This document shows, one piece after another, positions 1,299 to 46,301 of a stretch of DNA of 48,533 nt; positions within the stretch are counted from its first letter, which is position 1; every line of letters begins with the position of its first letter. Made by a program: the position numbers and the translations under genes. The DNA is from a virus (Duplodnaviria; Caudoviricetes), in IMG/VR virus record IMGVR_UViG_3300036778_000214, positions 1 to 48,533 of that record; one strand, given 5' to 3'. The notes beneath the pieces are model-generated. The model worked only from the letters and a program-made list of their open reading frames with translations, searched no databases and was not told the origin of the DNA.

Positions 1299-1542
1299 TT
1301 CTTACTCTCTCGACAAGTAATTTTGCAGAATCGGTTAGCGAGGATGAAATTTTTAACTTCCCGACGGTACCGATAAATACCGAGTCTTCATCGACAACCC
1401 ATTTCCTCCCATCTTTTCTGGCTGGCGGAGATATTTGCCCGGTTTTAGCCAGATGATTTAGTCGTTCCTGAGATTGCGGGTAATCGAACCCGTTCGGGCC
1501 GACGGCCCAATCTTCAATGAGTACGGTTTTGGTCATGGTCAT
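1276..1542 (-). CDS. xis: Excisionase
   Basis: 88 aa overlapping the int start; Xis-like pattern LIEDWA...GQISPPARKDGRKWVVDED. Confidence 0.88.
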   Translation of the reverse strand: MTMTKTVLIEDWAVGPNGFDYPQSQERLNHLAKTGQISPPARKDGRKWVVDEDSVFIGTVGKLKISSSLTDSAKLLVERVRNGRTPQT

Positions 1543-1556
1543 GTCTCTTCACTACA

Positions 1557-1591
1557 TGACCGCCGCAAACTATACGTGCCTGTGGCGGTCA
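1557..1591. promoter_or_regulatory. Stem-loop upstream of xis
   Basis: tgaccgccgca ... tgtggcggtca inverted repeat in the intergenic gap. Confidence 0.45.
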
Positions 1592-1615
1592 GGGGTTGAA
1601 CATCAATAATCAGGT

Positions 1616-2032
1616 TTAGAAATCAAGTGTTTGCTGTCCACCTCCTTGCTCCAGTTTCAACATCTTCTGGTGCGCGTTCTGGTAGCTGGCCCAATGCCCG
1701 ACTCGTATGATTTCGGCTTGGTCTGCACTGAGGCAGGGTTCCGGGGTGGCTGAGTTCTTGCGGTGTTCGGCGATGCGGATACGCTGGCCTGCTACATGCA
1801 GGCGCTGGCAGATAGGGCAGTAGTCGCGAGTGTCGGCGTAGCCAGCTTTTCCACTGAAGAAAATATTGCCGTGCCAGGTAGCACAGTTGCGGCACATTGG
1901 AGCATCACATGTAAACATACCCCTGCATTTTTGCATTCGACCGTTGTCATCTTCATCAGCGTCCCAGCCGATCAGGCCATCACAAAGCAAAGTCGCCGGT
2001 TCGCCGCAGAACATGCAGGAGGCTTTTTTCAT
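1616..2032 (-). CDS. Cys-rich hypothetical phage protein (probable Zn-binding)
   Basis: 138 aa with CxxC pairs (CMFC, CRNC, CPIC); start overlaps the upstream stop. Confidence 0.7.
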   Translation of the reverse strand: MKKASCMFCGEPATLLCDGLIGWDADEDDNGRMQKCRGMFTCDAPMCRNCATWHGNIFFSGKAGYADTRDYCPICQRLHVAGQRIRIAEHRKNSATPEPCLSADQAEIIRVGHWASYQNAHQKMLKLEQGGGQQTLDF

Positions 2033-2694
2033 AATAAGAATTCTCTCGTTTTTTCTCCTTTCGGATCGGTCCAGCCTAGTTCCTTGAGATGTCGGCGCAG
2101 GCGGTAAATTTCCATGCTGTCAGAACGTTTCTGCTTCTCCAGATCCATGACTTTTTGCGCCTGCTGCTGGTTTAACCGTAGATAGCCTCGCTGTTCCTGA
2201 AGTAACGCGTCAGGGTCACCGACGCGGTGAACCATGTAGGCAAGTAGCCCGCGCTCAACTTCCATGTCTGTATCGTGTCGCCAGAAATTAGCAAGTGGGC
2301 GATTCCCACCCCAGCTATTGCCGACCAGGCAGCAAATATGGCCTGCCATTAGCTTCACGTGACCGCGTTTATTAACCCATAACAAACCCCAGCGGTTCGG
2401 TAGATCGCCTAAATTGATCACGCCTTCAGGACAGATGAAATAGCGGTAATCACCCATGCCACCAGTCTGACGATGTGGTTTTTTACGATCAGCGAGGAAA
2501 TCGGATCGGCTGGTCTTTGACTCGACCAATACGCTGTATCCGTTCCAGCCCCAGCGGTAACCCCATGCGTCAGCCCTTTCCCCATCGCCAACGGCCCCCA
2601 CCTCCACGAAAGCCACTTTACAGCCGGGACCTTTCCCGCTTTCTGCACGTAATAACCAGCGCTTGGCTATGTCGTTTAAATCGGAATGTGTCAT
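2029..2694 (-). CDS. MmcB-like PD-(D/E)XK nuclease-fold protein
   Basis: RADAWG...VLVESKTSRSDFLAD..K...GDYRYFICPEG pattern; ATG at 2694 overlaps the upstream stop (ATGA). Confidence 0.65.
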   Translation of the reverse strand: MTHSDLNDIAKRWLLRAESGKGPGCKVAFVEVGAVGDGERADAWGYRWGWNGYSVLVESKTSRSDFLADRKKPHRQTGGMGDYRYFICPEGVINLGDLPNRWGLLWVNKRGHVKLMAGHICCLVGNSWGGNRPLANFWRHDTDMEVERGLLAYMVHRVGDPDALLQEQRGYLRLNQQQAQKVMDLEKQKRSDSMEIYRLRRHLKELGWTDPKGEKTREFLL

Positions 2695-3101
2695 TTCGGC
2701 TCCCAGATCATAGGATCGCCGCAGTGCGCACAACGGGGCATTTCGCCCGGTTTATCGGAAATTCGGTAGGCGTGGCTGATACAACGACAATTTTCGCTCG
2801 TTCCTACATCACGCGGGCGTCCTTGATACCAGATTTTCAGCTCGAGTTTTTCAGCCAGCGCGTTCTCTGCCCTGGCTCCCGCTGACAGATCCCATCCAGA
2901 CAGCATGTAAACAGCATCAGCGGCGCGAAGCATGGCGCAACAAATGTCCATGTATTGCGCCTGAGTCAGGCCGCTTGGGAGAAATGCTGGATTCAGTACA
3001 ACGTGGCCCTCATCCAGTAGCTGAGATTCAACGTTGTAAAACGCCTGACGGTTGAAGTTTGGCAGTCCGGTCATCGGTCCCGCGATATAAACTCGTGACA
3101 T
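2691..3101 (-). CDS. DUF4406 (nucleoside deoxyribosyltransferase-like fold) protein
   Basis: MSRVYIAGPMTGLPNFN...LNPA...DAVYMLSGWDLSAGARAE signature; start trimmed to the ATG at 3101. Confidence 0.85.
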   Translation of the reverse strand: MSRVYIAGPMTGLPNFNRQAFYNVESQLLDEGHVVLNPAFLPSGLTQAQYMDICCAMLRAADAVYMLSGWDLSAGARAENALAEKLELKIWYQGRPRDVGTSENCRCISHAYRISDKPGEMPRCAHCGDPMIWEPK

Positions 3102-3111
3102 TACGCTTCCT

Positions 3112-3933
3112 CTATTTGTGTAACGCAGCGGAGTTGATCCAGAGACATTCAGTGCGTGGTACGGCACCAGCCTGCCCACATGCTGCAACAGTCCGGGTCG
3201 TTTTCTTCCAGCTCGAGAGTCGGTCGTTGTATAACTCGCTGTCGTAGCCGCAAAGCACTACTTTTCCATCAAGTCCTTCCAGCGCATCGAGAAGGTCAAT
3301 ATGTTGAGCGTCAGTCATCTCAAAGCGGTACGCATTGTTTTTTGCGACGCTGACTCGTGTACCATGAACATAGGGAGGGTCAACAAAATGCAGTGTTGTT
3401 GGAGTATCGTGATCCTGCATGCATTTGATCGCGTCGCGATTCTCTACAAGCACACCAGAAAATCGGCTGGCCACAGCTGCGAGGTTATCGGGTTGGCGGG
3501 CCCAGATAGCTTGCGCGGTTGCACTATTCCTGCGGGTATCAAGCCTAAATCCAGTACATCCCTTTGTAGCTCCCGCAGAACCGAAGCCCATAGTTGCCCG
3601 AACAATCAGGCGACGAGCTAGTTCTACCGGGTTATCCGTCGGTTCATACGCACATCGGAATTCGTCGCGTGAATATGGCGTGAGGGCGCATGCATCAATA
3701 AGTCTTTGACTTTGAGATGGATCCCGCAGCACACGGAAAAGGTTCACCACGTCACCGTCGAGATCGTTATAAACCTCGGCCTCACTTTGTTCTTTTCTCA
3801 GGAGCACAGATGCCGCACCACCGAATGGTTCGACGTAGCAGCGGTGCGCCGGAAAGTGACTGATGATCCACGATGCCAGTCGGAATTTTCCGCCGTGGTA
3901 GCGGATTGCGGGGTGTTTGATTGTGTTCATCAC
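3112..3933 (-). CDS. dam: DNA adenine methyltransferase (D12/Dam class)
   Basis: YHGGKFRLA, YVEPFGGAASV, YNDLD and DPPY motifs. Confidence 0.93.
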   Translation of the reverse strand: MMNTIKHPAIRYHGGKFRLASWIISHFPAHRCYVEPFGGAASVLLRKEQSEAEVYNDLDGDVVNLFRVLRDPSQSQRLIDACALTPYSRDEFRCAYEPTDNPVELARRLIVRATMGFGSAGATKGCTGFRLDTRRNSATAQAIWARQPDNLAAVASRFSGVLVENRDAIKCMQDHDTPTTLHFVDPPYVHGTRVSVAKNNAYRFEMTDAQHIDLLDALEGLDGKVVLCGYDSELYNDRLSSWKKTTRTVAACGQAGAVPRTECLWINSAALHK

Positions 3934-4121
3934 GCACCAGCCTTAACGCACTTGAAGTGTTTGAGGATGACTTTTTCTTCAATAGATTTTCCTGCCTCGG
4001 TTCGCCCGGTAAGCATCTTCTCGCATTCGGTGATGGTCAGTTTTTTATCGGAAAAGCGTATCCAGTTGGTCGGTGCGTTCCCGGCTTTGATAGCAGTGGC
4101 GGTTATTTTGTACATGGTCAT
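3930..4121 (-). CDS. DUF1187-family small protein
   Basis: MYKITATAIKAGNAPTNWIRFSDKKLTITECEKML pattern. Confidence 0.7.
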   Translation of the reverse strand: MTMYKITATAIKAGNAPTNWIRFSDKKLTITECEKMLTGRTEAGKSIEEKVILKHFKCVKAGA

Positions 4122-4152
4122 GTCTCGTTACGCCCTTGATGGGGCGCCTCTG

Positions 4153-4632
4153 TTATTTTGAATGAGTTTTGATGTGCAGCCGTGGCTCTCCGTCTTTTGG
4201 TTCAGGCCATTCACGCGCCATGTTCACTTTCAGCTTTTCTTCCATCGCTGCTGTGATTTCGCCGTCACAAATACCGGCACGGCGCTGGGCATCCCACAGC
4301 AGGAATTGCATGTCTGCCCATTCACTCAGGTCGTCTGGTTTAGCGGCGGCTTCCAGTGCTTCTTTCGACAGATGCTTAAGAGGGCCAATGGGACCAACAT
4401 TGCCAAATGTTTTATCTGACCATTCGGCGTGACGTTGGCGAATCAGATTTCGAAGTTGCAATAGTGACCCCGTTTCTTGTGGTTGAGCATATGCCGGCGC
4501 TGCGAACTCCATCGCCTCTACGAACAGGCACTGAATCTTTGCCTGTAACTGTGCGTAATGCATCGGTGTTTCAATCATTCCCATTACCTGTCGTGATAGC
4601 GCAAGGGCTTTAGTGTCGTGAATGTTGCTCAT
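4153..4632 (-). CDS. DUF550 dATP/dGTP pyrophosphohydrolase-like (MazG-fold) protein
   Basis: WSDKTFGNVGPIGPLKHLSKEALEAA...EWADMQFLLWDA...KLKVNMAREWP signature. Confidence 0.85.
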   Translation of the reverse strand: MSNIHDTKALALSRQVMGMIETPMHYAQLQAKIQCLFVEAMEFAAPAYAQPQETGSLLQLRNLIRQRHAEWSDKTFGNVGPIGPLKHLSKEALEAAAKPDDLSEWADMQFLLWDAQRRAGICDGEITAAMEEKLKVNMAREWPEPKDGEPRLHIKTHSK

Positions 4633-5039
4633 GATTTACCTCCGTTGAGCATGGCGGCGCGGCAGGCGTTCCAGGTGGCAAACTGACCATCCATTGCTTC
4701 ATCGAAATACCCGCCGTCACAGCGCTGATACTCCCAACTTTCAAGCGGTTGACCGTTTTCCCGCTCCCACCACTGCTCGAATGACTGGTAATCAGGATTC
4801 GTCTCCCCACTCGCCGACATCCGGTATTGCTCCAGCTCTGCACGCCCTGCACGAACCATGTCGATTAGAACGCGGACGGTACGTGACAAGCCACCCGCTT
4901 CATCTGTTTTACAAAGCAGGTCAAAGCACGCCGCATCTACATTTGCTCTTTCGAAACATTCAGCAGAAACAGCCTCTTCGTATATTTCCTGCATCAGCTC
5001 GTCCGTTAGGTTGTTATTGGTCATCATTGAGTTGCTCAC
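4629..5039 (-). CDS. Hypothetical phage early protein (Eaa-like accessory)
   Basis: Coupled ORF ending WNACRAAMLNGGKS, typical of lambdoid ea genes; GTG start overlaps the upstream stop. Confidence 0.6.
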   Translation of the reverse strand: MSNSMMTNNNLTDELMQEIYEEAVSAECFERANVDAACFDLLCKTDEAGGLSRTVRVLIDMVRAGRAELEQYRMSASGETNPDYQSFEQWWERENGQPLESWEYQRCDGGYFDEAMDGQFATWNACRAAMLNGGKS

Positions 5040-5575
5040 GCCTTTTCCTCCCGCAGCTGCTCTTTCCAATCATTCAACGCCTGTTCAGCATATTCACCAG
5101 ATAACCCATCCGCAGCAGTTAGCGAGCCATTCGTTAAATCGGTTTTAGCATCCAAAATCATGCGCACCACGTCGCCAACCGCCGCCAGCGGCTTATCGAC
5201 AAATCCGTGATTGAAAGCTGCTGCAAGGCGGCTGGCAGCAAAATTAATACCCTGAATGCGGCCTTTATCTGTCACATCTGCGATAAAGCGAGCCGCTACC
5301 GTGCTTGGATCTGTCATATCGAGGTCGAACACCTCTGGCAGAACCTCATCCCATCCGGCTATTGTGCCGTTCTGGTGCCAGCCGATAATGCCGTCGGACT
5401 GTCCAGCAACAGCGCGAACGGCCTCGATCACTTCGCGTTGGGCCAGGTTCTCAATGGTCAGCGCCCGTATCTGCTGGCGCAGGCCATCACCGCAGTTGTG
5501 AGTCCCGCTTTTGCCGCGCAGCCACGAGTAGCCGCAGTCGCAGCGGAAGGTGTCATTAATTTCGGATACGTTCAC
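5036..5575 (-). CDS. Hypothetical phage early protein (Ead/Ea22-like region)
   Basis: GINFAASRLAAAFNHGFVDKP...DGLSGEYAEQAL segment common in enterobacterial prophages; GTG start overlaps the upstream stop. Confidence 0.65.
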   Translation of the reverse strand: MNVSEINDTFRCDCGYSWLRGKSGTHNCGDGLRQQIRALTIENLAQREVIEAVRAVAGQSDGIIGWHQNGTIAGWDEVLPEVFDLDMTDPSTVAARFIADVTDKGRIQGINFAASRLAAAFNHGFVDKPLAAVGDVVRMILDAKTDLTNGSLTAADGLSGEYAEQALNDWKEQLREEKA

Positions 5576-5952
5576 TTTGCATCTCCTTTGCTCTTGATTA
5601 ATTCGAACGGGATGTCGATCTCGTCGCCGGCCATTGCGGCAATAGCACGACAAATGGCTGTAAGTGGATTTTCTGCTATCCAGCCACGGCGTTTACGTGG
5701 TTCAACCAATTCGTAAACGGCAACCCAGTGAATAACTTTTGCTGTTTCTGGATCCATAGACTGATAACAACTGACGGAATGCCGTTCCATCAACGGGCCA
5801 CATACGCGCCAGCTTGATGACGGATGAAACGCGTCACCCGAAGTCCTAATAAGTGACAACTGCTCGCTGTACTTATTGCCATTCGCTGCGCGGTCTACCG
5901 CGTAATCCAGCGCCGACCCGGTAAGATCCGTCACTTTCATGCGTTTTTTCAT
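5572..5952 (-). CDS. NinX/DUF2591-like protein
   Basis: MKVTDLTGSALDYAV...FHPSSSW..CGPLMERH...NPLTAICRA pattern. Confidence 0.75.
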   Translation of the reverse strand: MKKRMKVTDLTGSALDYAVDRAANGNKYSEQLSLIRTSGDAFHPSSSWRVCGPLMERHSVSCYQSMDPETAKVIHWVAVYELVEPRKRRGWIAENPLTAICRAIAAMAGDEIDIPFELIKSKGDAK

Positions 5953-6281
5953 CTCATCGCTCCTGTAACCGTAATCACCCGGCGGTAGACCTCGCTTTGT
6001 GCCAGAGGCGGCAGGGCAATCACTTGCGGTTTTGGTGAGTAGCTGAAGCGTTGCAGATCGAAGTCGATTGTGGCCCGGAGGTCGCGGAACAATCCGCACC
6101 TGCCGTGACGAACGACTTCGCCAGTTTCCTCGGCTTCTCTGAAATATTTCTCAGTGGTCGAGCGATGTAGGCCGAGTATTTTTGACGCTTCCTTTACTGT
6201 TAGTCGTCCACAGCGCCGGGTTATGCTGATGATCAGCTTTACGGACGCTGCTTTTGCGGCAGAAGATAAACGCTTAGGCAT
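5949..6281 (-). CDS. DUF977-family HTH protein
   Basis: GRLTVKEASKILGLHRSTTEKYF...GLF...IDFDLQRF; start at the ATG at 6281 after GGGGTGAG. Confidence 0.7.
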   Translation of the reverse strand: MPKRLSSAAKAASVKLIISITRRCGRLTVKEASKILGLHRSTTEKYFREAEETGEVVRHGRCGLFRDLRATIDFDLQRFSYSPKPQVIALPPLAQSEVYRRVITVTGAMR

Positions 6282-6283
6282 AC

Positions 6284-6370
6284 TCACCCCCATATCAGCC
6301 AGATAACGATGATCCAGAAAAGCGCACATGATATGAAAACAGCCAGCCATGCCTTGCGCTTAGCACTCAT
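6284..6370 (-). CDS. 28-aa YmiA-like single-pass membrane peptide (not in ORF track)
   Basis: Translated by hand as MSAKRKAWLAVFISCALFWIIVIWLIWG*; fills the gap between the PerC-like and DUF977 genes. Confidence 0.7.
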   Translation of the reverse strand: MSAKRKAWLAVFISCALFWIIVIWLIWG

Positions 6371-6372
6371 TT

Positions 6373-6825
6373 TCATCGCATGCTCTCCTGGCGTTGTTGT
6401 TTTGCAGTCAACAGACATTTTTTGCGGAACATGATGATGCGGCGGGCCTCGCCTTCACTTTTGGCTAGCGCTAACAGCTCGGCGAGTACGGTAGCGGCTC
6501 GCCGGGGAAGTCCGCGTTCGAGCAGGGCGCTGGCTTTGGCCTCACCCGCAGCGATTTTTGAATCCCCGGCATGTAGCTCTGGGACGTATTGCGCTTCGAC
6601 ATAGATGCCGGGACACACCATGTAGACATACTGACGACCATGTTTTTCTCTGGACAAAATCCCGTCATTAACGAGGGTGGTCAGGTGTAAGTGCGCCAGA
6701 CTGGTGTCAATGATCAGTTTTTCGCAAATCTCACTGGCCGTACTGTCCTGGTTGCTTTTAACAAAACCGACGATTAAATTTCTGACGTTTCGTTTTTCTG
6801 TAGTTGTATTCATCGCGTTAATCAC
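6373..6825 (-). CDS. wHTH + PerC-family transcriptional activator
   Basis: N-terminal winged helix; C-terminal ALLERGLPRRAATVLAELL...RKKCL PerC-like motif. Confidence 0.75.
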   Translation of the reverse strand: MINAMNTTTEKRNVRNLIVGFVKSNQDSTASEICEKLIIDTSLAHLHLTTLVNDGILSREKHGRQYVYMVCPGIYVEAQYVPELHAGDSKIAAGEAKASALLERGLPRRAATVLAELLALAKSEGEARRIIMFRKKCLLTAKQQRQESMR

Positions 6826-6856
6826 TGGCGACCGGAGGGCCGCCAGCCTCCAGTAG

Positions 6857-7966
6857 TTATGCGCCGATGTATTCCGGCTTCATGTCATTCAGGGTCACGG
6901 TGTATCCGTCGAAGAGATCACCCAAGTGCTGTTTCATAGCGTTCAGCGCATTTTCCAATGCATTGAATTTTTCAGCGGCTTCTGGTTCGTCCGGATTAGG
7001 CAGTTCGTTGATCATCTTCTCGATGCGGGTTACAGCGTTGAAGCGATGGTGACGACCGACAACCTTGTTCTTCAATTCGGTGTACAGGTCGATGTTAATT
7101 ATGTTTTTCTGGCTTTCGATAACCTTGCGAAGTTCAGTAGTGTCTTCTGTGCTTCCTGCATCATCGATGCGCTGGCGGAAATCTATGACCCAAAAATCCA
7201 TGTCATCCGTGTTGGGAGTATCTTCAGCAACATCGATTACTGAATGGTCGTTAAGCGACTGGATATCAACTCGCTCAGTTGAAGGCGTTGGGTTGATCTC
7301 TTTTTCTAGGTGTCCCTCAAGTTCCTCCTTGGTGTAAACACCGAGAATCACATCAGGCGTATACAGCCGCGCCCAATACTTAAGGGCCAGATAAGCGATC
7401 TGCTGCTTAGGGTTGGAGATCCACAATGGAGAGTTGCGAATCACAACACTCGAAAGGTAAACAGGTTCACCCCATGTAACCTGCTTCTCACCGCGTAGCA
7501 TCGCGCCTACCTTGACGAACACACCCATTTCATCGGCATCAGTCCAGCCGCGCACGCGCTCAGTTGTGGTGTAATCACCTTTGCTGCCTTTTTTCTTAAC
7601 GGTGATCTCTCTGGAACTGGCGCACTTGGACCAGTCACCACCGTATTCGTAATGGAAGCGTCCGGTTACAGCATCTGAGCTTGAGATTACCGCATTCACT
7701 AACTGCGCTTCATAGCCGAGCTTTCCGCTGACCAGATGCGTTTTCTGCGCGACCGCGTAAGGGTTCATTCCCCATTGCATCGCCTGCATAACGATAGCCA
7801 TGCAATCTGCTGGCTTTCCGGCCAGGTGATCCGGTACCGAGACGCGGGAGTCGGCCATCAGGTTTGCGAATGCCGTTAACTGATTGAGCATTGGCACATT
7901 AAAAATGGCACTGCTGGCTGAGATAGTGGCCGGTGCCTGATTCTGATTTTCTGGTAAATTTGTCAT
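6857..7966 (-). CDS. recT: RecT-family ssDNA annealing protein
   Basis: VPDHLAGKPADCMAIVMQAMQWGMNPYAVAQKTH...WARLYTPDVILGVY. Confidence 0.93.
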   Translation of the reverse strand: MTNLPENQNQAPATISASSAIFNVPMLNQLTAFANLMADSRVSVPDHLAGKPADCMAIVMQAMQWGMNPYAVAQKTHLVSGKLGYEAQLVNAVISSSDAVTGRFHYEYGGDWSKCASSREITVKKKGSKGDYTTTERVRGWTDADEMGVFVKVGAMLRGEKQVTWGEPVYLSSVVIRNSPLWISNPKQQIAYLALKYWARLYTPDVILGVYTKEELEGHLEKEINPTPSTERVDIQSLNDHSVIDVAEDTPNTDDMDFWVIDFRQRIDDAGSTEDTTELRKVIESQKNIINIDLYTELKNKVVGRHHRFNAVTRIEKMINELPNPDEPEAAEKFNALENALNAMKQHLGDLFDGYTVTLNDMKPEYIGA

Positions 7967-7977
7967 TATCGGTCTCC

Positions 7978-10914
7978 TTACATTGCCGCCAGCGCTTCGA
8001 AACGGCGCAGGTCGAAATCGTTGAGCTGGTCTGTGTAGTCTTCCGATATCGGAGCAGGCCAGTTGTTCGTCATCATGGCGTCGTTAATCTGGCGCAGCGT
8101 TCGACGGTATTCGAGACGGCCTAACTCCAGGAGGTCTGCGGATGCTTCCACGACAGCTACCCAGTGATAGCCGGGATCCTTGTTCACAAAAATCCAGAAA
8201 AATTGGTCGAGATTTGCCACGTCGCAGTACATTGCGGCACTCAGGTGGTAATCGCGTTCGATGATTTCCCGATGTAGACGGTCACGCAGGCGTTCCTGCT
8301 TCACGTTGCCCATGCTAATAGTTTTCAGATCGCCGCCGAGGCGAGCATGTGGGAGCTGAATTTCGAGATCCGGACGAACGCGTATTTCGAGTCCTGTCTC
8401 GTCGTCAAATCCGAAGTAGCTGACTTCAGACTCGCGTTTCTCGTGGTTGAGTAGTCGGCTTGCGCTCGGGTGAGCGAACACGGCCTTTTCGATTTCTTTG
8501 ACCTGTTGATACATGTCCAGGCTGATGTAAGTGCGCCCGGCGCGGATCCGTTCCTGTTCAGCATCGAAGTCTTCCTGCAACACAGCGTCAGGTCGAAGGA
8601 CTCGCACTATTTCAGCCAGTTGTGCGCGGCTGCCGCTGACGTTGTAAGGTTGCGGTTTGCCGCGTTCCGCGTCCGCCAGCTCCGGTGCGACGGTACCGAT
8701 TTGGTCCAGTAATTGCTCGCGGCTGCCGCTTGTTTTGAGCAGCGGAGGAAGGCTGGCGTTGTACTCTTTGATGCATGCCTTTTGCAGGGTAGCGGTGTGT
8801 TTCGTACCGTCAGGAATGCGCTGAAACTCCTCTGGAAGCGACATGTAAAGCAACCCGGTTTCGTCTGCGTTGGCGCTCAGAGATAGTGGCGGTGTCAAAT
8901 CATTGTTATACGCCTCGATCCACGCCTTCATTTCCTCTGGAGTCATTACGGCAGGCAGGCTGTCGTTGTACTCCTTGATGATTGCGGTCATGTCCGCCGT
9001 CGTGCGAATCAGGTCTTCCGGCGGTGTAATCGGGACGGCATATTCCGCATCGATTTTCCCAGCTTCCAGAATGAACGCATGCGAGTGTCCGCCGAACAGA
9101 AACGCTTTAGTTTCTTCGCGTGGAATAGTTTTCTCAACGTGGCGGGAGCCGTAATACATCAGGCTGATTCTTGCGTCTTTCAGCATAGTGCTGCTGATAC
9201 CGCGAGCGGCGTGGTAAACCTCGTTCGGCACGTTCTCGTAGCGGCCCGGCTCGAAAACGGTAGGCCATTGCTGAACTGGATCCGGTTCGATTTCTGCCGA
9301 ATGTGGTTCAATCTGGTCAACAACTGGCTCGCCTTGGTTCGCGCCAGCGTTATTTTGGTTCGGATCCGTACTTTTCTGGTTCGCCAGGCTAGGCGCGTGC
9401 GCTGCCAAAATCTCAGCGGGTGTAAGCTCTACGGTAGTTTTTTCCGCGTTTTTGCCTTCACAATTTTCGCCTGATGGCAGCGCATCACCAGTCTGTTTTT
9501 CCTCAATATCAGCTTCTTGACTCTGCACATCGTCGAAGGTCTCCACTTCATTTTCGGTTTCATCAATACCAAAATTCGCCAGCGCTTCCTCATCAGAAAG
9601 CTGCTTCGACATTGGCATAGGCATTGAGGATCGGCCGCAAGCGATATCCACCACTAATTCGTCAGGGTTCGCGTGATCAGTTTCGGTCATCACACGATTG
9701 AGATGCTCGCGGTGGCGGGGCGCATTTTTCCACAAACCTTCCGGTGTTGTTTTCACTGTGGCAATGTTGCAGGCGCGAGAAAAATCGAGACTGCCGGGCA
9801 TAGATTTGAACAATTCGACTGTGGCCACAAACTCCGCATCGTCGCGTTTGTTCAGCATGGCATTGGCCTGTGAGTCGATTTCCATCGGCACGTTATAGAT
9901 ATTGAATTCGAACTTGCGGGCCAGGAGCCCGTAAGCGATTTCGCATTCCTGTGCGATTGGGGTAAGGGGAGTCAGGCGATCAGTTTTATTACCGCCGCCA
10001 GCATTCGCACCTGATGGAGTGCGCTGCACGGAAGAAATACGGTTGCCGGCGGCCCATTCGCGTACCAGAATCCCGCGATCGATATGTTCGGCGTTGAGCC
10101 AGACCGCAGTAAATTTGAGAAGGGTGGATAACTCCTGCCGCTTATCTCTTGGAAACACTTTTTTAACGGCCTGGGTATATTTCCATAAGCCCGGAAGGTT
10201 GAATTTTTTGAGTTTTTCATGTTGCGATGCAGCAAGCAAAAGGTTCTGGACGTAGCTATTGTCTGTGTCCATTTCCATCTTGCCCAAGGCGCAACGCTGC
10301 TCCCAGGTGTACTCTGTTACATGCTTTTCGTCGGAAACGAGTTGGGCCAGGAGTTGCTGATTGAAACTGACAAGTGGCAGGCTATAGACACTCTCACCTG
10401 TGCTTGAAGTTCTGCGGACGGCTGTTTCGTCATCAGGTTCAGAGTCTACGCCGTCGTCTTCATCATCAATGACAATGCCATTTTCGACGGTGACGGTAGC
10501 AGTCTCATCAACGCTGCCGGCATTATCCACACCAACTATTTCGCCAGTCTCTATGTCCCTGATGATGTCGCGGCCTTCTACTACCTTTTCGCCTGCCGGT
10601 GGCAGCGGCTCTGCGCCGGGGATGAGCTGGAACGTCATTCCATCTTCACCCAACTGATAACGGTCGCAAAATGTTGTACTGAACACACCCTCATCCGGCA
10701 GGTCGTCCACAACAGGCAAGTTCACGCGGATAGCTTTGGCGAAATCCTCGTCGTTGTAGCCCGCGTCATCCATAGCCAGTGCCATACGGGATTGGGCGAG
10801 GCTCTCTTTTTTGCTGGTACACCAGAAGAACGCGGCTTTGATGTTCAGGCGCTTCCGCGCGGCTTCGTTCTTTACTTTTTGGTACAGGGCAATTTCTTGC
10901 GGCATGTCACTCAT
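7978..10914 (-). CDS. recE: RecE exodeoxyribonuclease VIII
   Basis: Large protein with a C-terminal PD-(D/E)XK domain (ISSTMLK, RVRPD, DLKT, YHLSAAMY); adjacent to recT. Confidence 0.93.
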   Translation of the reverse strand: MSDMPQEIALYQKVKNEAARKRLNIKAAFFWCTSKKESLAQSRMALAMDDAGYNDEDFAKAIRVNLPVVDDLPDEGVFSTTFCDRYQLGEDGMTFQLIPGAEPLPPAGEKVVEGRDIIRDIETGEIVGVDNAGSVDETATVTVENGIVIDDEDDGVDSEPDDETAVRRTSSTGESVYSLPLVSFNQQLLAQLVSDEKHVTEYTWEQRCALGKMEMDTDNSYVQNLLLAASQHEKLKKFNLPGLWKYTQAVKKVFPRDKRQELSTLLKFTAVWLNAEHIDRGILVREWAAGNRISSVQRTPSGANAGGGNKTDRLTPLTPIAQECEIAYGLLARKFEFNIYNVPMEIDSQANAMLNKRDDAEFVATVELFKSMPGSLDFSRACNIATVKTTPEGLWKNAPRHREHLNRVMTETDHANPDELVVDIACGRSSMPMPMSKQLSDEEALANFGIDETENEVETFDDVQSQEADIEEKQTGDALPSGENCEGKNAEKTTVELTPAEILAAHAPSLANQKSTDPNQNNAGANQGEPVVDQIEPHSAEIEPDPVQQWPTVFEPGRYENVPNEVYHAARGISSTMLKDARISLMYYGSRHVEKTIPREETKAFLFGGHSHAFILEAGKIDAEYAVPITPPEDLIRTTADMTAIIKEYNDSLPAVMTPEEMKAWIEAYNNDLTPPLSLSANADETGLLYMSLPEEFQRIPDGTKHTATLQKACIKEYNASLPPLLKTSGSREQLLDQIGTVAPELADAERGKPQPYNVSGSRAQLAEIVRVLRPDAVLQEDFDAEQERIRAGRTYISLDMYQQVKEIEKAVFAHPSASRLLNHEKRESEVSYFGFDDETGLEIRVRPDLEIQLPHARLGGDLKTISMGNVKQERLRDRLHREIIERDYHLSAAMYCDVANLDQFFWIFVNKDPGYHWVAVVEASADLLELGRLEYRRTLRQINDAMMTNNWPAPISEDYTDQLNDFDLRRFEALAAM

Positions 10915-11046
10915 TACTTTTTTCCTCAATCCGTTGTAGAATGAAGGCGATCATTGTTCGCCTTCTTCTCGTTGGTGGTCAGTGGTCATGTCTCTGCTGG
11001 TCGGTTTGGTCGCCGGCCTGCACATCGAGAGATGTTAAATCTGGAA

Positions 11047-11379
11047 TCAGCCCGCCTCGTGCGGGCTTTTTTCGTTTTTAGCCAGCAGGGCAGCAACCAG
11101 AAGAATTCCGAGTACCCCCAGGCCACCTGCATCTTTTGAACTGACATAAATACCGTCATCACCGCAGTGATGTTTAGTCAGGGCTTTAACCGCGTGCTCA
11201 GTGCAGCAGTAATCGCCCAACAACGTTCCGTCGAGAAGAACTATTGATTGTTTTTGTGTTTCGCGGTTTTCTTCTTTGTTTTCGCAAATATAACCGACCA
11301 TCTCATCATTAATGATGGCCTCGGAAACTGATGGGAAAACGGTATTAATGGTTTTAAGTTGAACGATGATGCTTTCCAT
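11047..11379 (-). CDS. Hypothetical protein with C-terminal hydrophobic segment
   Basis: AGAGG RBS before the ATG at 11379; 110 aa. Confidence 0.6.
   Translation of the reverse strand: MESIIVQLKTINTVFPSVSEAIINDEMVGYICENKEENRETQKQSIVLLDGTLLGDYCCTEHAVKALTKHHCGDDGIYVSSKDAGGLGVLGILLVAALLAKNEKSPHEAG
11049..11072 (+). terminator. Intrinsic terminator oriented on the plus strand
   Basis: agcccgc-ctcgt-gcgggct followed by a T run. Confidence 0.6.
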
Positions 11380-11568
11380 ATATAGCCTCTTTTCAGGTAA
11401 TAGAATCCCATGCCATTGCTGGCACATATTTTTTGCAACATTGGAAAGTGCCATTTATTTGACACTTTCAGATGTCGCAATGAATAACAGGTCGCCGGAG
11501 ATTCGAGGCCGTGCGTAATCACGACTACCCTCGCTGTTATTATTGCCCGCTGGCTGCGGAAACTTTAC

Positions 11569-11733
11569 TTATGGCTCATGCGCCATGCGGTCGCATTCAG
11601 CGCACCGGGCGCTACAGTATTCCCGGTCTTCTGTAACCATCACACGGCCTGACAACAGACGCAGGGTAGATTGCACCGCTTTGTTTTTATCGACTAACTT
11701 CTGGCACAGGCCATAAGCACATTTAATTTTCAT
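11569..11733 (-). CDS. YdaE-like small Zn-binding protein (not in ORF track)
   Basis: Translated by hand as MKIKCAYGLCQKLV...EYCSARCAECDRMAHEP*; same position as Rac ydaE, between kil and recE. Confidence 0.75.
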   Translation of the reverse strand: MKIKCAYGLCQKLVDKNKAVQSTLRLLSGRVMVTEDREYCSARCAECDRMAHEP

Positions 11734-11746
11734 TTCGGTATCTCTT

Positions 11747-11947
11747 TCAGTGGACTATTTCTGGTTCACCATCTTTTCCAAGAACAACCTCAATAAACTC
11801 ATCGGTTATTTTTATTTTTTCAAACAGCGTGAAAACGTATAAACCTTTATCTTGTGGATTAGCCGAAGCCTTCCATGTTCTTTTTTGATGTATAATTGTC
11901 ATCCCAGGACGGACGTCAGCGCGAGGGAGTTTTCGTGTGCCGTACAT
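11747..11947 (-). CDS. kilR: Kil (Rac KilR-like) cell-division inhibitor
   Basis: YGTRKLPRADVRPGMTIIHQKRTWKASAN...ITDEFIEVVLGKDGEP parallels Rac KilR; GGAGG RBS. Confidence 0.75.
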   Translation of the reverse strand: MYGTRKLPRADVRPGMTIIHQKRTWKASANPQDKGLYVFTLFEKIKITDEFIEVVLGKDGEPEIVH

Positions 11948-12016
11948 ATAAGCATCCTCCACAAAAAAATTAGTGCGGTAGCCATTTGTGATGTTTCTGC
12001 ATAGATAGCGATTCCT

Positions 12017-12298
12017 CTATTCAATCCAGTGTACTTTCCAGCCCCGGCTCTCCAAATATTCTGCAATTTCCTGAGTAACCAGTTCATCCAGGACATCGAT
12101 CATCTTATTGTTATTGCTTATCCAGGTAGCAACACTGTCAGTGCCGATTACTTCAAGAATTGAGTCATCATCATCAATCTCTTCAATCAGGTCAGATAGT
12201 TCAACACCATCGATTTCCACACGAACATTTCGATAGTCATCTGGTTTGATAACGACGTCTGAACCATTTACTTCAAAGCTGATTTTTTCCATGGTCAT
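12017..12298 (-). CDS. Acidic hypothetical phage protein
   Basis: 93-aa ORF starting within the repeated GAGACATGACCA motif. Confidence 0.7.
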   Translation of the reverse strand: MTMEKISFEVNGSDVVIKPDDYRNVRVEIDGVELSDLIEEIDDDDSILEVIGTDSVATWISNNNKMIDVLDELVTQEIAEYLESRGWKVHWIE

Positions 12299-12328
12299 GT
12301 CTCTGCTGTTAATTAAACAAATTTTACG

Positions 12329-12452
12329 GTGTGGTGCCGGGTGCCTCCCGGTGGCGGCAACCAGTTAACAATCACCACCGATCACTTTTCCACCCACAAC
12401 AATAAGGGATTGTGTTTAACTGAACCGCGTGCGCTAAGCCGCATTCACAACA
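12329..12452. ncRNA. Structured non-coding element of the early leftward operon
   Basis: Intergenic; hairpin ccgggtgcctcccgg and long stem cagttaacaatc...gattgtgtttaactg; GGTGCCGGGTGCCTCCCGGTG is a motif I recognise from other lambdoid prophages. Confidence 0.5.
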
Positions 12453-12475
12453 CCTCAAAATTTGCTTTATTTATT

Positions 12476-13018
12476 CTATTTCCAGCAAGATGCTCGTTGT
12501 TCTATTTCCATAACAGTAAGACTTTCTAGAGGTACCGAAGTGGTGCCGTTGCGATAGACCAGAATTGAACGAACTCCGTCATTCTCGCCTTTATAGTCCT
12601 GATGTGTATGCTTCCAAATCGCGTCCAGCTTTCTCTGTCTCTGGGAGTTGTACACTTCATCAGCTTCGATAATGTGGCGTGCCCGCTCCCATGCAATTGA
12701 GATGATTTCCACCTGTTGCTGGCGGGTTCTGGAGTGAAACAAGCACCAGCGATTGCGTAGCCAATCGAAGCGTTTGTTTTCTTCCAGCGCTTCGGAATGA
12801 ACCATCGTTACTACTATTTTTCGGAAAAGTAAGCTCGCAGAAGCCCAGGAATCTCTATCGTTTGAAATCAATTTCAATGAGGCATCGATCAATTCATTAT
12901 TTTGCAGCGCTTCATAGCGTGCTTTTGCAATCAATTGACGTTGCCAGTCTGGGTTGGTGTAAAAATCAAATTGTTCATCCATGTCCAGCGCTTCGATTTT
13001 TGTGATTGAATTGGTCAT
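12476..13018 (-). CDS. Hypothetical phage protein
   Basis: 180-aa ORF; start directly follows a motif copy. Confidence 0.7.
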   Translation of the reverse strand: MTNSITKIEALDMDEQFDFYTNPDWQRQLIAKARYEALQNNELIDASLKLISNDRDSWASASLLFRKIVVTMVHSEALEENKRFDWLRNRWCLFHSRTRQQQVEIISIAWERARHIIEADEVYNSQRQRKLDAIWKHTHQDYKGENDGVRSILVYRNGTTSVPLESLTVMEIEQRASCWK

Positions 13019-13045
13019 TTGGTCATGTCTCTGTTGGTGGGTTTG

Positions 13046-13474
13046 TTACGCCGCGTTTGGGGCGATCATGTTGAACAAGTGCTCACGAACGCGCAGGCGT
13101 TTATGTTCTGGCATCGCAAGGTATTCCTTGCCGATGGAGATTTGCTTTTCGAAATACTCAGTGATTGCTGCGGTAATAAGATCGGTCATCTTCGGGGAGC
13201 CGCTAAGCAGCATGTGAAGTTCTGTGGGGTTGTGTGCCATGCGATCCATCAGGTTTGAAGCAATTCGGCGGCCATGCGGGATGAAGTCAATCAACTGCTG
13301 GAAGTCAGGGGAGAGGGCGTTCTCGCCGTCTTCGTCAACTGCGGTGTATTTTTCGCCACGGAGCGCAGCTTCACGAACCAAATTCTCTGCTGCCGTGATG
13401 GCATCTGCTTCTGGGATGCAGGCCGGGATGATTTCTACAACTTCGGACTTCTGGTTCAGGATGGTGATTTGCAT
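13046..13474 (-). CDS. Hypothetical phage protein, first gene after the putative leftward promoter
   Basis: GAGG RBS before the ATG at 13474. Confidence 0.7.
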   Translation of the reverse strand: MQITILNQKSEVVEIIPACIPEADAITAAENLVREAALRGEKYTAVDEDGENALSPDFQQLIDFIPHGRRIASNLMDRMAHNPTELHMLLSGSPKMTDLITAAITEYFEKQISIGKEYLAMPEHKRLRVREHLFNMIAPNAA

Positions 13475-13480
13475 TTTTAG

Positions 13481-13570
13481 TAACCTCATAGTTAGAAAAA
13501 ATTTCCATGAGGTTATTTTAGCAATAATTACCTTTCAGTAAAGATAAATTTACCAGAAATGGTAAATAAA
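13481..13570 (-). promoter_or_regulatory. Putative leftward promoter/operator region with RBS-sequestering hairpin
   Basis: Minus-strand TTTACT-N16-TAAAAT; palindrome atttacc-agaaat-ggtaaat; 9-bp inverted repeat taacctcat/atgaggtta at 13481-13515. Confidence 0.5.
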
Positions 13571-13795
13571 TTATCTTTTGGTATTTGCTTTGCTTGCTTC
13601 ATCAAATGGGTCCTCCCCCTCCATTTCGAGGCGGATCAGTCCATTTAAGACTATTTTCCGAACCATTTTTGATGAAACAACCATTGGGTCTTTGATCATT
13701 TCTGCGATCATTGTCTCAGTTAAAGGATATTCAGATTTTTTATCATTTTTTTCAGTAACCATGTATTTTTCAAAGAGTTTTCTCAGAAATTTCAT
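13571..13795 (-). CDS. Small hypothetical protein downstream of Q
   Basis: 74 aa, GAGG RBS, AT-rich. Confidence 0.6.
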   Translation of the reverse strand: MKFLRKLFEKYMVTEKNDKKSEYPLTETMIAEMIKDPMVVSSKMVRKIVLNGLIRLEMEGEDPFDEASKANTKR

Positions 13796-13851
13796 AGGAA
13801 CCTCATATGTTGAAATTGGTATGTATTCGCAGGAGAATGCATTCTCTTATT

Positions 13852-14487
13852 CTACTCATGAGGTTCTTGGCGGGGAGGGTGCAATTCAGTAATCAGATTG
13901 TAACTTTGCTCAGCTATCGCTTCTTGTCGATAGCACCATGCAATGAGTGTCTGATAGAGCGGTGACCAGCGTCTTGAGTAAGTGGGTTGTGAAAGGCTGA
14001 TAATTTTCAATAATGCGTGGTGGCACCTGGTTTCTGTCAGTGGACGTAGTCCTGAGCCTTTGCATCGTGGGCATTTTTTTACCGCCAGATTTTTTTTGTT
14101 TTTCGCGATAGCTACTGTTCCTGTGCCACCACAACGGCATTTTGCACCGGGGGTATCTGATGTGCGGCAAAATTCCTCCAGTGCAAGTGTAGACAGAATC
14201 ATAAAAGCTTCACGCGGAGTATTCCTGCCGTTTTTTGGGATGAACTGACCTGCGACAGAAGCAGCATAGGCATCAATGCCGGCCAGGGCAGTTGAAGCCG
14301 CATGCATATCTTTTGTGTATTTTGCATAAATCAGCGCGAGTCCGTATCGACAGCGCGATTGAGTAATCCCCAACGAGATCACTATATCGTCACGGGTAAG
14401 ATGACTATTGCCCGTTGATCGAGCTTGATAGGAGACGATTTGTGCGGACTTGGGATCTCCGATCGTAATAGCGTATTTTAGTCTCAT
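13852..14487 (-). CDS. Q: Lambda-Q-family antitermination protein
   Basis: MRLKYAIT..DPKS...LTRDDIVISLG..QSR N-terminus and CRCGGTG...CPRCKGSG zinc finger, as in lambda Q. Confidence 0.85.
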   Translation of the reverse strand: MRLKYAITIGDPKSAQIVSYQARSTGNSHLTRDDIVISLGITQSRCRYGLALIYAKYTKDMHAASTALAGIDAYAASVAGQFIPKNGRNTPREAFMILSTLALEEFCRTSDTPGAKCRCGGTGTVAIAKNKKNLAVKKCPRCKGSGLRPLTETRCHHALLKIISLSQPTYSRRWSPLYQTLIAWCYRQEAIAEQSYNLITELHPPRQEPHE

Positions 14488-14488
14488 T

Positions 14489-16192
14489 TTACTTTTTCCA
14501 CTGCCGCTCTGCGGTCAGAATTACCACTGACACGCTTGTCCCTATAAATTCGCCTGATCTTGGTTCTGACCATGTGCAGTTCCACTCAGAAGAGAGAACG
14601 TCGTTTCCTCGCATGCTTGCGGGCAGAATAGCGACAATTCGCGATCCTGTTTTTGTCATTTCAGCTGCGGCATGCAGATGGGCTAAAGCGCGACCGTCAG
14701 CAAAAGGCGGGTTCATTATGATGCGATCAAAACAACCTCCGTGAGCAGCCCATTTCAGGAAATCAGCCTCATAGACCCGTAACCCTTTGCTTTCGAGCAC
14801 TTGGCATTTGAGAGGTGAAACTTCGACACAAATTGTCTGATCAACCGGCATAAACTCGGCGATACCTCCGTGTCCGGCGCTAGGCTCCAGGCACGTATGA
14901 CCCGGTTCGATACCGGCCATTTGCACGCAGTATTCAGCCAGTTCTGGTGGGGTGGGGTAGAACTGGTGAGATTTATCATCGGGCACGCAACCGGACGCGA
15001 TTATTTCCGCCAGCACCCGCGTTGGATCATATTCGAACTCCCACCATGACCAGTTTCCGCTATAGAACTTGGTGCCGCCAACCGAGGAGAGGATGCGCTC
15101 AGATTCCTTCCGAACATGAAGATCCGCTTCAGAACCGCAAAAAACCCGGTTGAAAGGGTTGGTGGTTTTTGGCTCTATCGGGTCACCACCGCGAAATCCC
15201 TGAGTTGGTTTGTACTTATCAATCTCCAGACGACACATGTCGTGTAGAACGGCAACAGGAAGAACATTTTGCATCAACACAAAATCTTTGATTTTTTTCT
15301 TCGATTTAGCGCGGAATTCAGGCGGGATAGCCATCGGGTACAGACTCGCCAAAATATTGTTGAGTCGCCAGGCAATGTCTGGATGCACCTCAAAGTGTGC
15401 GGTGCCTTTCAGGTAGGCTTTGATGCGCATCTCGCCGCCATCAATAGTCATCCATTCACCGGGATAATTACGTGCGGCCTGTAGCGCCTTGTTTGTCAGT
15501 TCGAATGATGGTTCCGGTCGCCCCATGAACTTAGCGATGACCTGTCGCAAATCGAGCACATGATTGACCTGCTTGTAGTTCGTCATTCCCCACTGGTCGT
15601 ACACATCGGACAGGATCATGTACTTGCTGAAACCACTAGGGCGGTTCGTTACATGTTCGCCAGACAATGCGCGGAAAATACCATCCACACGTTCACTGAA
15701 AAATTTGGCGCGAGAGTTGAGCATATCCATGAGCGTTGCTCTGACTGTTTCCTCTTCAAATTCAGGCAGAGGCTCCAGAGTCCATTCTTTCTGGATTTCT
15801 CCGGATTTCAGCTCAAAATGATTGAGTCGCGGGGCTTTGATGCCCTGGGGATTATCGATCTGTTCACGCCACTGTTCCCGACGCTTGGCTGGCATGACAT
15901 CAAGTACGTCGGTCAGCAGTAGCGCTCTCTGCCAGTATGTCGCATTCAGGTGACTTATCGCACCCTCCCGAGCGAATAGGTCGCTAATCGCAGGAAAACT
16001 CCTGAAACGTTCGCCACGGCGGTTTCCACTCATGAAGTGTTCTATTGCCACTTGAGCGTCGTTATCGCTAAGAATCGCCGCTAAGGACTCGATTTTTTGG
16101 CGTTCGAGTGTATACCTACCCATCAGGTTGTCCACCAGGTCGCTTGGTGCGGGTGCGAAAAATTCGCCGGTATTAAATACTTCGCTGGTCAT
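14489..16192 (-). CDS. DUF4942-domain class I SAM-dependent (N6-adenine) DNA methyltransferase
   Basis: C-terminal QFYPTP, LEPSAGHG and IIMNPPF motifs; long N-terminal DUF4942-like region; ATG at 16192 follows the O stop. Confidence 0.82.
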   Translation of the reverse strand: MTSEVFNTGEFFAPAPSDLVDNLMGRYTLERQKIESLAAILSDNDAQVAIEHFMSGNRRGERFRSFPAISDLFAREGAISHLNATYWQRALLLTDVLDVMPAKRREQWREQIDNPQGIKAPRLNHFELKSGEIQKEWTLEPLPEFEEETVRATLMDMLNSRAKFFSERVDGIFRALSGEHVTNRPSGFSKYMILSDVYDQWGMTNYKQVNHVLDLRQVIAKFMGRPEPSFELTNKALQAARNYPGEWMTIDGGEMRIKAYLKGTAHFEVHPDIAWRLNNILASLYPMAIPPEFRAKSKKKIKDFVLMQNVLPVAVLHDMCRLEIDKYKPTQGFRGGDPIEPKTTNPFNRVFCGSEADLHVRKESERILSSVGGTKFYSGNWSWWEFEYDPTRVLAEIIASGCVPDDKSHQFYPTPPELAEYCVQMAGIEPGHTCLEPSAGHGGIAEFMPVDQTICVEVSPLKCQVLESKGLRVYEADFLKWAAHGGCFDRIIMNPPFADGRALAHLHAAAEMTKTGSRIVAILPASMRGNDVLSSEWNCTWSEPRSGEFIGTSVSVVILTAERQWKK

Positions 16193-16196
16193 TTGG

Positions 16197-16943
16197 TCAT
16201 GTCTCGTTAAATTTCTTGATCGCCTGGTGCTCAAGGCTTTTGGCGAAAGTCATTTCCCACTGCTCCTGGAAGCGCAGAGCGTCTTCTGGCTGCCAGTAAT
16301 CGCGGAATTGGCGCAGTTGCGCCGGGGTGAATGGGATTTGGTTGTCGAGCAGATGCCCCCATTCGGTGGCTCGTTTCGAAAAGCCGGGAAGGGGATGCCA
16401 GCCTAGATACATTCGAAATTTCCCGGATGGTTCTAGGGCAAAGTTATCCACAGACTGTTCGCGCGCGTTTATGATCTCTCTCTCTGGTTTTAGATCTTTA
16501 TCTTTATCTTTATCTGTTGTGACATGGTGTGACGCATCGTGACATTCGTGTGACATTTCATTTTTATTTCTGCTCTCTTTTTCCCTTTCACGTTGTTCTC
16601 TTTTTCTTTGAGTAGCTGATTTTGCACCAGTTTTTTTATTTCCATGGTCCTCTTTTTTGGGCTGTCTGTGCTCCCATCCGGTGAGGTGCGTTCCGTCTAA
16701 AACACGCCCCTGCATAGCCGAAATTACCGCTTCAATGTCACGATTTGTCACGTCAAAATGTGACGCTAAATCTTCATTCGTGACATTGGCGTGACCGCGT
16801 GTGACATTTTGTGACGCGCTCACCAGCAGATGTAAGTAAACGGCCTGCACCAATGCAATTGGTTGCCCGGAAAATTTGGCGATCGTCCGCCATTTCGGAT
16901 CATTGGGCATGTCATGCCAAAGGCGCAGCCATGTGTTTGCCAT
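16197..16943 (-). CDS. Replication initiator (O-like) with C-terminal DnaT-like domain
   Basis: WLRLWHDMPNDPKWRTIA N-terminus, DKDKDKD linker, KFRMYLGWHP...FRDYW...QWEMTFAKSL C-terminus. Confidence 0.85.
   Translation of the reverse strand: MANTWLRLWHDMPNDPKWRTIAKFSGQPIALVQAVYLHLLVSASQNVTRGHANVTNEDLASHFDVTNRDIEAVISAMQGRVLDGTHLTGWEHRQPKKEDHGNKKTGAKSATQRKREQREREKESRNKNEMSHECHDASHHVTTDKDKDKDLKPEREIINAREQSVDNFALEPSGKFRMYLGWHPLPGFSKRATEWGHLLDNQIPFTPAQLRQFRDYWQPEDALRFQEQWEMTFAKSLEHQAIKKFNET
16519..16816. repeat. Clusters of GTGAC/GTCAC iterons inside the initiator gene (probable ori)
   Basis: Four GTGAC at about 16520-16555 and seven GTGAC/GTCAC at about 16737-16816, flanking an A/T-tract region. 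Confidence 0.65.
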
Positions 16944-16992
16944 AAAAGCCTCGATTACGTAACGCTGTCGGAGTCACGTGATGAAACGTTAG

Positions 16993-17475
16993 TCATTGGT
17001 CATGTCTCTGCTGCTTATCGCGATAAGCTCTACGGATATCCTTGAGAGCCTTATCCAGTCCATCACATTCTTCCTCAAAGTCTGAGAGCGGAGCGTTGAG
17101 CAGCGCGGCATTAACTACGTCAGCGTGTTCTTTCAGAAGCCTTGATGTAAGAAATTCAATGCTGTTCCCAGCAGTCACCATTGCGCGAATCCCTGGATCC
17201 ATTGCATGAAGAATCGCCGGGGCAAGATCGGTGAGTTTTTCTCGTTGAATCGTGGTCTGGCATTTGCGCCAGCGATGGAAAATATTTTGATTATTGTTCC
17301 GCAAGACATCGTGATCGACGCTGCCATCAGGCTTTACGATGCGTTGAAGCTCGTGGGGTGAGCGCAGGCCCAGATCAAAATATGCGCTGGTTATTCGCAG
17401 CGTCGCTTTGAACTGTGTGGTTTCTCGCGACCATTCCTGGAGCGCGGAACACAGAAGGGGGAGGTTGATTTTCAT
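16993..17475 (-). CDS. CII/YdaT-family regulator
   Basis: ALQEWS..TTQ...NNQNIFHRW...LAPAILHAM pattern; lies between cro and O. Confidence 0.8.
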   Translation of the reverse strand: MKINLPLLCSALQEWSRETTQFKATLRITSAYFDLGLRSPHELQRIVKPDGSVDHDVLRNNNQNIFHRWRKCQTTIQREKLTDLAPAILHAMDPGIRAMVTAGNSIEFLTSRLLKEHADVVNAALLNAPLSDFEEECDGLDKALKDIRRAYRDKQQRHDQ

Positions 17476-46231: not shown

Positions 46232-46264
46232 GAGCAAGGACTCACAACATCACAAACGAATTAT

Positions 46265-46289: not shown

Positions 46290-46301
46290 ATTGGGGTAAG
46301 C

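Follow-up and report, generated by a model that had tools for sequence, protein, structure and literature searches.

The window analyzed here, a 48,533-nucleotide (nt) stretch that is itself the 48.5-kb IMG/VR phage record IMGVR_UViG_3300036778_000214, represents an enterobacterial phage that is lambdoid and temperate according to family scans of its proteins. The leftward early arm encodes cro, cII, O, a DUF4942 methyltransferase, a Q-like gene, kil, recE, recT, accessory genes, xis, and int, while cI reads rightward and the lysis, head, and tail genes are located on the plus strand. The family scan of 41 window open reading frames (ORFs) detected no N homologue, and no P/DnaC loader was found among the window ORFs scanned. 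Seven gene junctions of the early arm carry the same 12-mer, TGGTCATGTCTC as read on the plus strand (hereafter the box), and the box in the recE leader lies opposite a predicted antisense small RNA, the seed of which is the other strand of that box (Table 1). The boxes and this RNA are the subject of the present study.

Table 1. Boxes, predicted RNA elements, and associated features of the early arm (positions in the window).
Feature	Position	Strand	Remark
Box at xis start	1536..1547	-	exact copy
Anti-box upstream of xis	1554..1561	-	conserved, able to pair with xis box; competes with upstream hairpin
YdaT/CII-type box upstream of xis -10-like element	1596..1613	-	predicted pI-like promoter; differs from 12-mer
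Box at DUF1187 gene start	4115..4126	-	exact copy
recE (exonuclease VIII)	7978..10929	-	family scan; leader overlapped by predicted small RNA
Predicted -10 box TAGAAT	10937..10942	+	context as upstream of canonical isrB
Predicted IsrB-like antisense RNA, 124 nt	10949..11072	+	5' hairpin, seed, loop hairpin, third hairpin, terminator
recE-leader box (minus), small-RNA seed (plus)	10983..10994	+/-	cis target; short leader ORFs come after
Hairpin with conserved UUUGGUCG loop	10999..11018	+	common to IsrB; folding, alignment
Intrinsic terminator of antisense RNA	11049..11072	+	terminator scan, covariation
Box at start of phrog_7311 gene	12292..12303	-	phrog_7311 is the first gene before kil
STnc100-like structured RNA	12299..12485	-	28.5 bits, below cut-off; directly before box at 12303
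Box ahead of 180-amino-acid unknown gene (13018-12476)	13020..13031	-	exact copy
Box holding O stop codon	16194..16205	-	precedes DUF4942 methyltransferase start (16192)
cII-like gene, YdaT family	16993..17475	-	family scan
Box at cII end	16997..17008	-	encodes R-H-D of CII C-terminus; precedes 13-codon ORF (16996-16955) leading to O
YdaT/CII-type box over cII start codon	17465..17482	-	predicted pRE-like; placement as Rac YdaT-box

The initial annotation had reported seven exact copies of the box, all sense to the leftward transcripts, at named gene junctions and absent from the late arm, and each of these observations was reproduced. The window contains no other exact copy, and 100 dinucleotide shuffles of the window contained 0.01 copies on average, with none reaching seven. 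The degenerate count that the annotation had called for, with up to two mismatches allowed, added only two 2-mismatch matches (chance mean 4.0) and no copy with one mismatch. An ATG or CTG follows every box after 0–2 bases, and GAG(A/G) is found 7–9 nt ahead of the start codon in nearly all copies. As described earlier, TGAC directly follows the box in five of the seven copies, and micro-ORFs occur at the boxes, namely MTK-stop (twice), MTND-stop, and, in addition, a 12-codon ORF; three copies share the frame with the next gene.

The Shine-Dalgarno (SD)-like GAG(A/G) at this spacing is in favor of the box being a mere convenient ribosome-binding site or a micro-ORF for translational coupling. 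However, the micro-ORF frames vary, as the offset from the ATG to the next start differs among relatives (0, +1, or +2 nt) and that ATG is absent from other box versions, so the role that the annotation had seen for the micro-ORFs is not upheld. A ribosome-binding role also requires neither 12 exact bases, nor the phage-specific versions and the antisense unit described below, and we give this explanation next to no weight.

The gene for the small RNA had been missed in the initial annotation, which had offered a small-RNA site as one option for the box; of the options listed there, this one is the best supported. The 5' end of the RNA was predicted from its -10 box. The predicted fold has a z-score of -3.84 (0 of 200 shuffles as good), and in 14 of 16 loci the comparison with shuffles favors the fold of the antisense strand over that of its sense counterpart. 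In each of the 16 folded loci, the recE-leader copy is framed by an antisense -10 box, a loop hairpin, and a terminator; the antisense unit is located upstream of recE in most RecE prophages among those listed, and the Rfam isrB model scored at this recE-leader position in three loci (L135, L216, and L218). In a 13-sequence alignment, 94.9% of the cells pair and 6 of the 18 pairs are changed on both sides, whereas one-sided changes produce G-U pairs on the antisense strand. All 16 folds have a 5' hairpin of variable sequence whose stem takes in the UGG(UC) of the seed, so that a variable heptamer stays mostly open; seed nt 6–12 are mostly unpaired (mean 0.59–0.85), and nt 1–3 and 5 lie inside the 5' hairpin. 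In the RNAs of four loci (L790, L791, L792, and L818), an additional hairpin carries a second UUGGUC loop, which brings the UGGUC elements to three.

The predicted RNA resembles IsrB-1 and IsrB-2 of the Salmonella prophages Gifsy-2 and Gifsy-1 (RF01386) in its antisense position in the recE (sbcA) leader, the same -10 context, and the UUUGGUCG loop hairpin followed by an intrinsic terminator. IsrB is an 88/94-nt RNA opposite the sbcA/recE strand that is induced in starvation (PMC2330248), and it is expressed from Gifsy-2 in strain 4/74, while the Gifsy-2 lytic genes are silent in strain D23580 (PMC7067206). In contrast, the window RNA is longer (~124 nt) and has a different 5' half, a 12-nt seed, and an extra hairpin. 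It has no match to Rfam isrB at the gathering cut-off (35 bits), nor up to an E-value of 10 within positions 10900–13100. The available text of these sources names no target for IsrB.

Conservation of the boxes was examined in a RecT-anchored sample of 80 viral loci (the best 80 of 598) and 58 genome loci. In the six closest relatives, with RecT 76–80% identical to that of the window, the same junctions hold 6, 7, 7, 7, 7, and 6 exact copies, and the last of these relatives has one further copy with one mismatch; the flanks of the conserved boxes are ~70–80% identical between the window and these relatives. Among the 132 other RecT loci, nine have one or two exact copies, and a repeat search of all 132 identified no alternative multi-copy 11-mer at the junctions. 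The arms of those nine loci diverge, and the boxes flip orientation together with the transcripts, occupying the cII stop and the recE leader and, with one mismatch, the sites at xis and the phrog_7311 gene. Since the window is the phage record itself, the host-genome count proposed earlier was carried out in the hosts of relatives, and every exact copy in three whole genomes (6, 7, and 1) is inside a prophage. The 12-mer matches in 50 of 401 family genomes but is clustered in only two. No relative covering the early arm and no record with the box region was found among GenBank phages, and the E. coli complete genomes gave no match, so that “E. coli-type” is unsupported as a label for L143-like prophages. 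Of 239 matches from pattern scans across genome and metagenome collections, two are real loci, both already in the sample, and the rest chance, and two further scans (128 and 69 matches) returned mostly chance matches. Overall, the proposal of a phage-wide cis element is supported.

The cII-end box has been lost in two loci (L742 and L743) through an 8-nt deletion between short direct repeats. In L143 (3350-3844, minus strand) and L718 (870-1330), a conserved -1 shift located at a T4-A7 run breaks the cII-like gene in two; read on in the shifted frame, the L143-type cII regains homology to the C-terminus of the window CII, and cII of L717 is in frame. Programmed frameshifting or slippage is possible at this split gene.

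Prophages reached through CII homologues have other boxes, each repeated within its own phage and present in its own antisense unit. These versions include GAGATGTGACCA, GAGGTATGACCA, GAGGAAAGACCA, and GAGGCAAGACCA, and a search with an RNA covariance model built from 13 loci added GAGGCATGACCA and GAGTTTTGACCA; seven seed versions have exact repeats, and GACCA is the part of the box that is invariant across versions. The version of the RNA recurs exactly elsewhere, at other start sites, in 23 of 30 regions, which include close kin and are therefore not 30 independent events, and exact copies of foreign versions are rare in these regions and mostly one G-U step off. The covariance model matched in 9 of 151 genomes, 9 of 101 genomes, and 16 places in 50 loci. 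The RNA architecture is present in 12 of the 19 match regions examined, where the own seed occurs at other starts exactly (6), with one mismatch or inserted base (4), or not at all (2). Seven weak matches (L822-L827 and L829) lack the seed and were not counted as members. In loci anchored on cII, the cII box and the RNA-locus box match in 61 of 77, and the remainder, apart from four considered below, are cut, deleted, or mutated. Seed and boxes thus change jointly across phages.

This joint change bears on the possibility that the boxes bind an RNA-binding protein, encoded by phage or host, that controls translation, with the structured recE leader offering extra GACCA loops. The invariance of GACCA, its recurrence in hairpin loops at the recE leader, and a copy inside the RNA that is sometimes more mutated than the others agree with such a protein. 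However, a host protein does not explain the phage-specific middles of the boxes, and only the CII family, among the early proteins of the window, accompanies the box in the tabulated loci. CII was rejected as the specificity factor because the version does not follow CII identity, being shared at 40–41% protein identity and different at 75%. Tabulation of early proteins across loci also rejected CI, the phrog_7311 protein, and the methyltransferase. Moreover, the G-U pairs keep the stems intact on the antisense strand and not on the mRNA strand, and a protein-binding role appears quite unlikely.

Boxes that are asymmetric, oriented with transcription on both arms, and restricted to early genes, in a phage with no N homologue among the ORFs scanned, could also be transcription signals such as nut-like antitermination sites, as was suggested in the initial annotation, or stoperator-like repressor sites. 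Known nut sites and stoperators serve the N protein or a repressor at early promoters, whereas the window has no box between cro and cI or at their promoters, and the copies abut or cover start codons far from promoters. The version is also independent of the repressor type, as the window cI and cro have no match in the L143-type loci that share its box version, and CII has its own, different box. Signals of this kind are very improbable here.

Module exchange is also seen at the boxes. The O module is exchanged box to box between relatives, inserts between cII and O are flanked by direct boxes (589 bp in L718, 1318-1918; 492 bp in L385, 152-655), and the flanks of a box resemble those of other copies in the same phage. 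The boxes could therefore be primarily recombination linkers, short sequences that recombination keeps identical and at which early modules are swapped or inserted, for example by RecET. The earlier proposal to compare relatives for changes of gene content at the boxes gave a partly positive answer: internal block edges lie at most 7 nt from a box in 3 of 10 cases for the pair L132/L133 and in 2 of 13 for L132/L134, but in 0 of 9 for L131/L211. Twelve bases are short for efficient RecT annealing, and the box contexts listed include no box-to-box inversion junction between the arms. In addition, linkers leave unexplained why the boxes are strictly in sense orientation, keep a fixed distance from start codons, and are missing in the late arm, and why a promoter-hairpin-terminator unit encloses one copy. 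From these features, the suggestion of cassette shuffling stands as far as exchange at the boxes is concerned, but use as crossover points looks like a consequence or secondary role, and linkage as the primary function is unlikely. The cII–O inserts of L718 and L385 differ from each other, and each holds one forward and one reverse small ORF.

Pairing between the RNA and the boxes was modeled by cofolding, in which five of the six trans boxes gain 13.7–25.3 kcal/mol, compared with 1.9–12.3 kcal/mol for 21 other start regions used as controls (three windows off-centre). Independent one-base variants of the trans boxes include seven transitions, all compatible with G-U pairing; this pattern lends weak support, because SD and start constraints also disfavor G-to-A changes. 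Based on the sequence comparisons and folding models, the 12-mer is, with a probability of roughly 70%, a shared ribosome-binding/start box and the target of the predicted IsrB-like antisense RNA, which would shut early translation, probably in the lysogen.

Several observations weigh against this interpretation. The -35 region of the small RNA is poor, and a generic promoter scan found no full site. The covariation score was reached by 0 of 500 shuffles, but the tested structure was derived from the same related sequences, so that this value is support and not a probability. The minimum-energy fold of the window RNA buries seed nt 9–12; an alternative fold with the covarying third hairpin frees them at a cost of 0.9 kcal/mol. 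The xis box gains only 6.1 kcal/mol in cofolding, as it pairs with its own upstream anti-box, and the trans-box variants also include five transversions and one phage with an inserted base. A test for wobble changes in the flanks was negative (118/390 vs. 54/159). An exact second copy of the own version is missing from 7 of the 30 regions, the cII box accompanies a canonical IsrB unable to match it in 4 of the 77 cII-anchored loci, and in L786, L815, L816, and L267 the seed does not match the boxes of its own phage. In L786, the seed is one mismatch away from six boxes, and the search made found no intact copy in the same genome; L814, L815, and L816 are related prophages of one genome (G126), with an intact seed in L814 and seeds bearing distinct point changes in L815 and L816. 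No comparable start boxes accompany canonical IsrB or its commonest variant in 16 loci, so that multi-target seeding belongs to a sub-lineage and not to the family as tested. Finally, one stretch of DNA serves as both seed and recE-leader box, and a phage-specific protein or homogenizing recombination would also lead one to expect that it changes together with the other boxes. Four RNA sequencing runs contained 0, 1, 0, and 0 reads, counts that have no bearing on expression, and no run was listed as containing a relative's locus.

We infer the following course for control by the antisense RNA. The RNA would be made from its own promoter in the lysogen, and its open variable heptamer, including the anti-SD CUC, may serve as a toehold that docks on the SD part of the box. 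Pairing would then open the 5' hairpin of the RNA and extend over GACCA and the second TGAC(C) or start codon, and ribosomes would be kept from initiating at whichever gene or short leader ORF comes first in a cluster. The uncoupled transcripts would be terminated by Rho (polarity), which would matter because no N-type antiterminator was found, and the early arm would be switched off. In this model, a single RNA likely keeps all of the early arm silent. Once the prophage is induced, the recE leader, where complementarity is complete, may titrate the RNA together with six more seed sites. The seed versions would define specificity groups, and identical boxes could provide crossover points, such that swapped modules would arrive already under control.

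The xis box may be subject to additional control. A -10-like TATAGT sits in the loop of a hairpin upstream of xis that competes with the anti-box, and folding faintly suggests a two-hairpin switch, with the long transcript leaving the xis box more accessible in 7 of 9 cases, by small margins. In short transcripts, the anti-box could close the xis start. The region before xis (1548-1613, minus strand) resembles a pI element, with a YdaT-type box, the -10-like hexamer in its hairpin loop, and the anti-box.

Known phage systems share single features with the boxes and the RNA. The P1/P7 c4 and P4 CI RNAs pair with phage transcripts near ribosome-binding sites, block translation or terminate transcription early, and set immunity specificity (PMC12197685, PMC4825925), and the window RNA would work in this way if its predicted pairing in trans with phage mRNA starts or leaders takes place. 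However, P4 CI is processed from the transcript that also holds its two targets close by, and c4 affects a single operon, whereas the window RNA lies on the opposite strand with its own predicted -10 box and terminator, and its seven sites are spread over 15 kb; an Rfam scan of the window gave no match to the C4 family. In cluster K mycobacteriophages, the SAS is an asymmetric 12–13-bp repeat immediately 5' of starts in one orientation, with an SD-like part and conserved bases, and the available text leaves open whether RNA or protein binds it (PMC3203893). The window box is likewise asymmetric, directly before starts, and in one orientation, but its consensus and host differ, and the window phage has a complementary RNA gene that varies with the box. 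Like lambda OOP, the window RNA would be a phage antisense RNA touching the 3' end of cII, but OOP is encoded in cis at cII–O with one target, while the window RNA gene is located at recE and the cII end is a predicted trans target. An OOP-like RNA from the cII–O gap was itself rejected on reading the sequence, as the gap is too variable and has no conserved antisense promoter or terminator.

In its published form (PMC9986795, PMC11879457), the YdaT site is an inverted repeat spaced by 6 nt and lies, like the Rac YdaT-box, at the cII start; the 12-mer does not have this form, and the predicted CII boxes lie separately (Table 1). All 14 aligned CII homologues end in QRHD(Q/H), which is the reading of the box. 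The STnc100-like RNA, a variant of which with a conserved hairpin loop occurs in box-bearing prophages, was rejected as the regulator because the stretch of it that matches is held in a stem and because boxes also occur in L338-type prophages, which lack it. The gene order at 13852-17732 (minus strand) is unusual, with O directly followed by the DUF4942 methyltransferase and Q-like genes and the arm continuing into kil-recE-recT-xis-int, and is common to the six relatives. The window also encodes a HicA/HicB-like toxin-antitoxin pair between cI and the lysis genes (19258-19850, minus strand) and a tail spike with a colanic-acid-degradation family match (46191-48533, plus strand), truncated by the window end.

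In the open-licence literature, no description of the boxes or of an IsrB target was found; subscription papers and supplements fall outside this scope, including the table of 38 function-less phage small RNAs in PMC12197685, which may list such an RNA. A literature search with the exact 12-mer gave only papers unrelated by title among those listed. Within the literature covered, the arrangement would be a variant of phage antisense control not previously described. To our knowledge, each phage antisense RNA described so far controls a single gene or operon.

If the proposed targeting is true, one seed repeated in seven starts would provide repressor-independent prophage silencing and discrimination between kin and non-kin, and would suggest how N-less lambdoid phages control a long early arm. 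A still wider role is possible rather than probable: the RNA may form a second, RNA-coded immunity layer in a widespread lambdoid prophage group, where one RNA would silence replication, recombination, excision, and accessory starts across both arms, at least seven seed versions would define CI-independent immunity groups, and the boxes would be crossover points that pre-wire newly swapped-in genes. The pairs of seed and box represent a possible orthogonal translation switch, and the boxes give IsrB-like RNAs their first testable target set.

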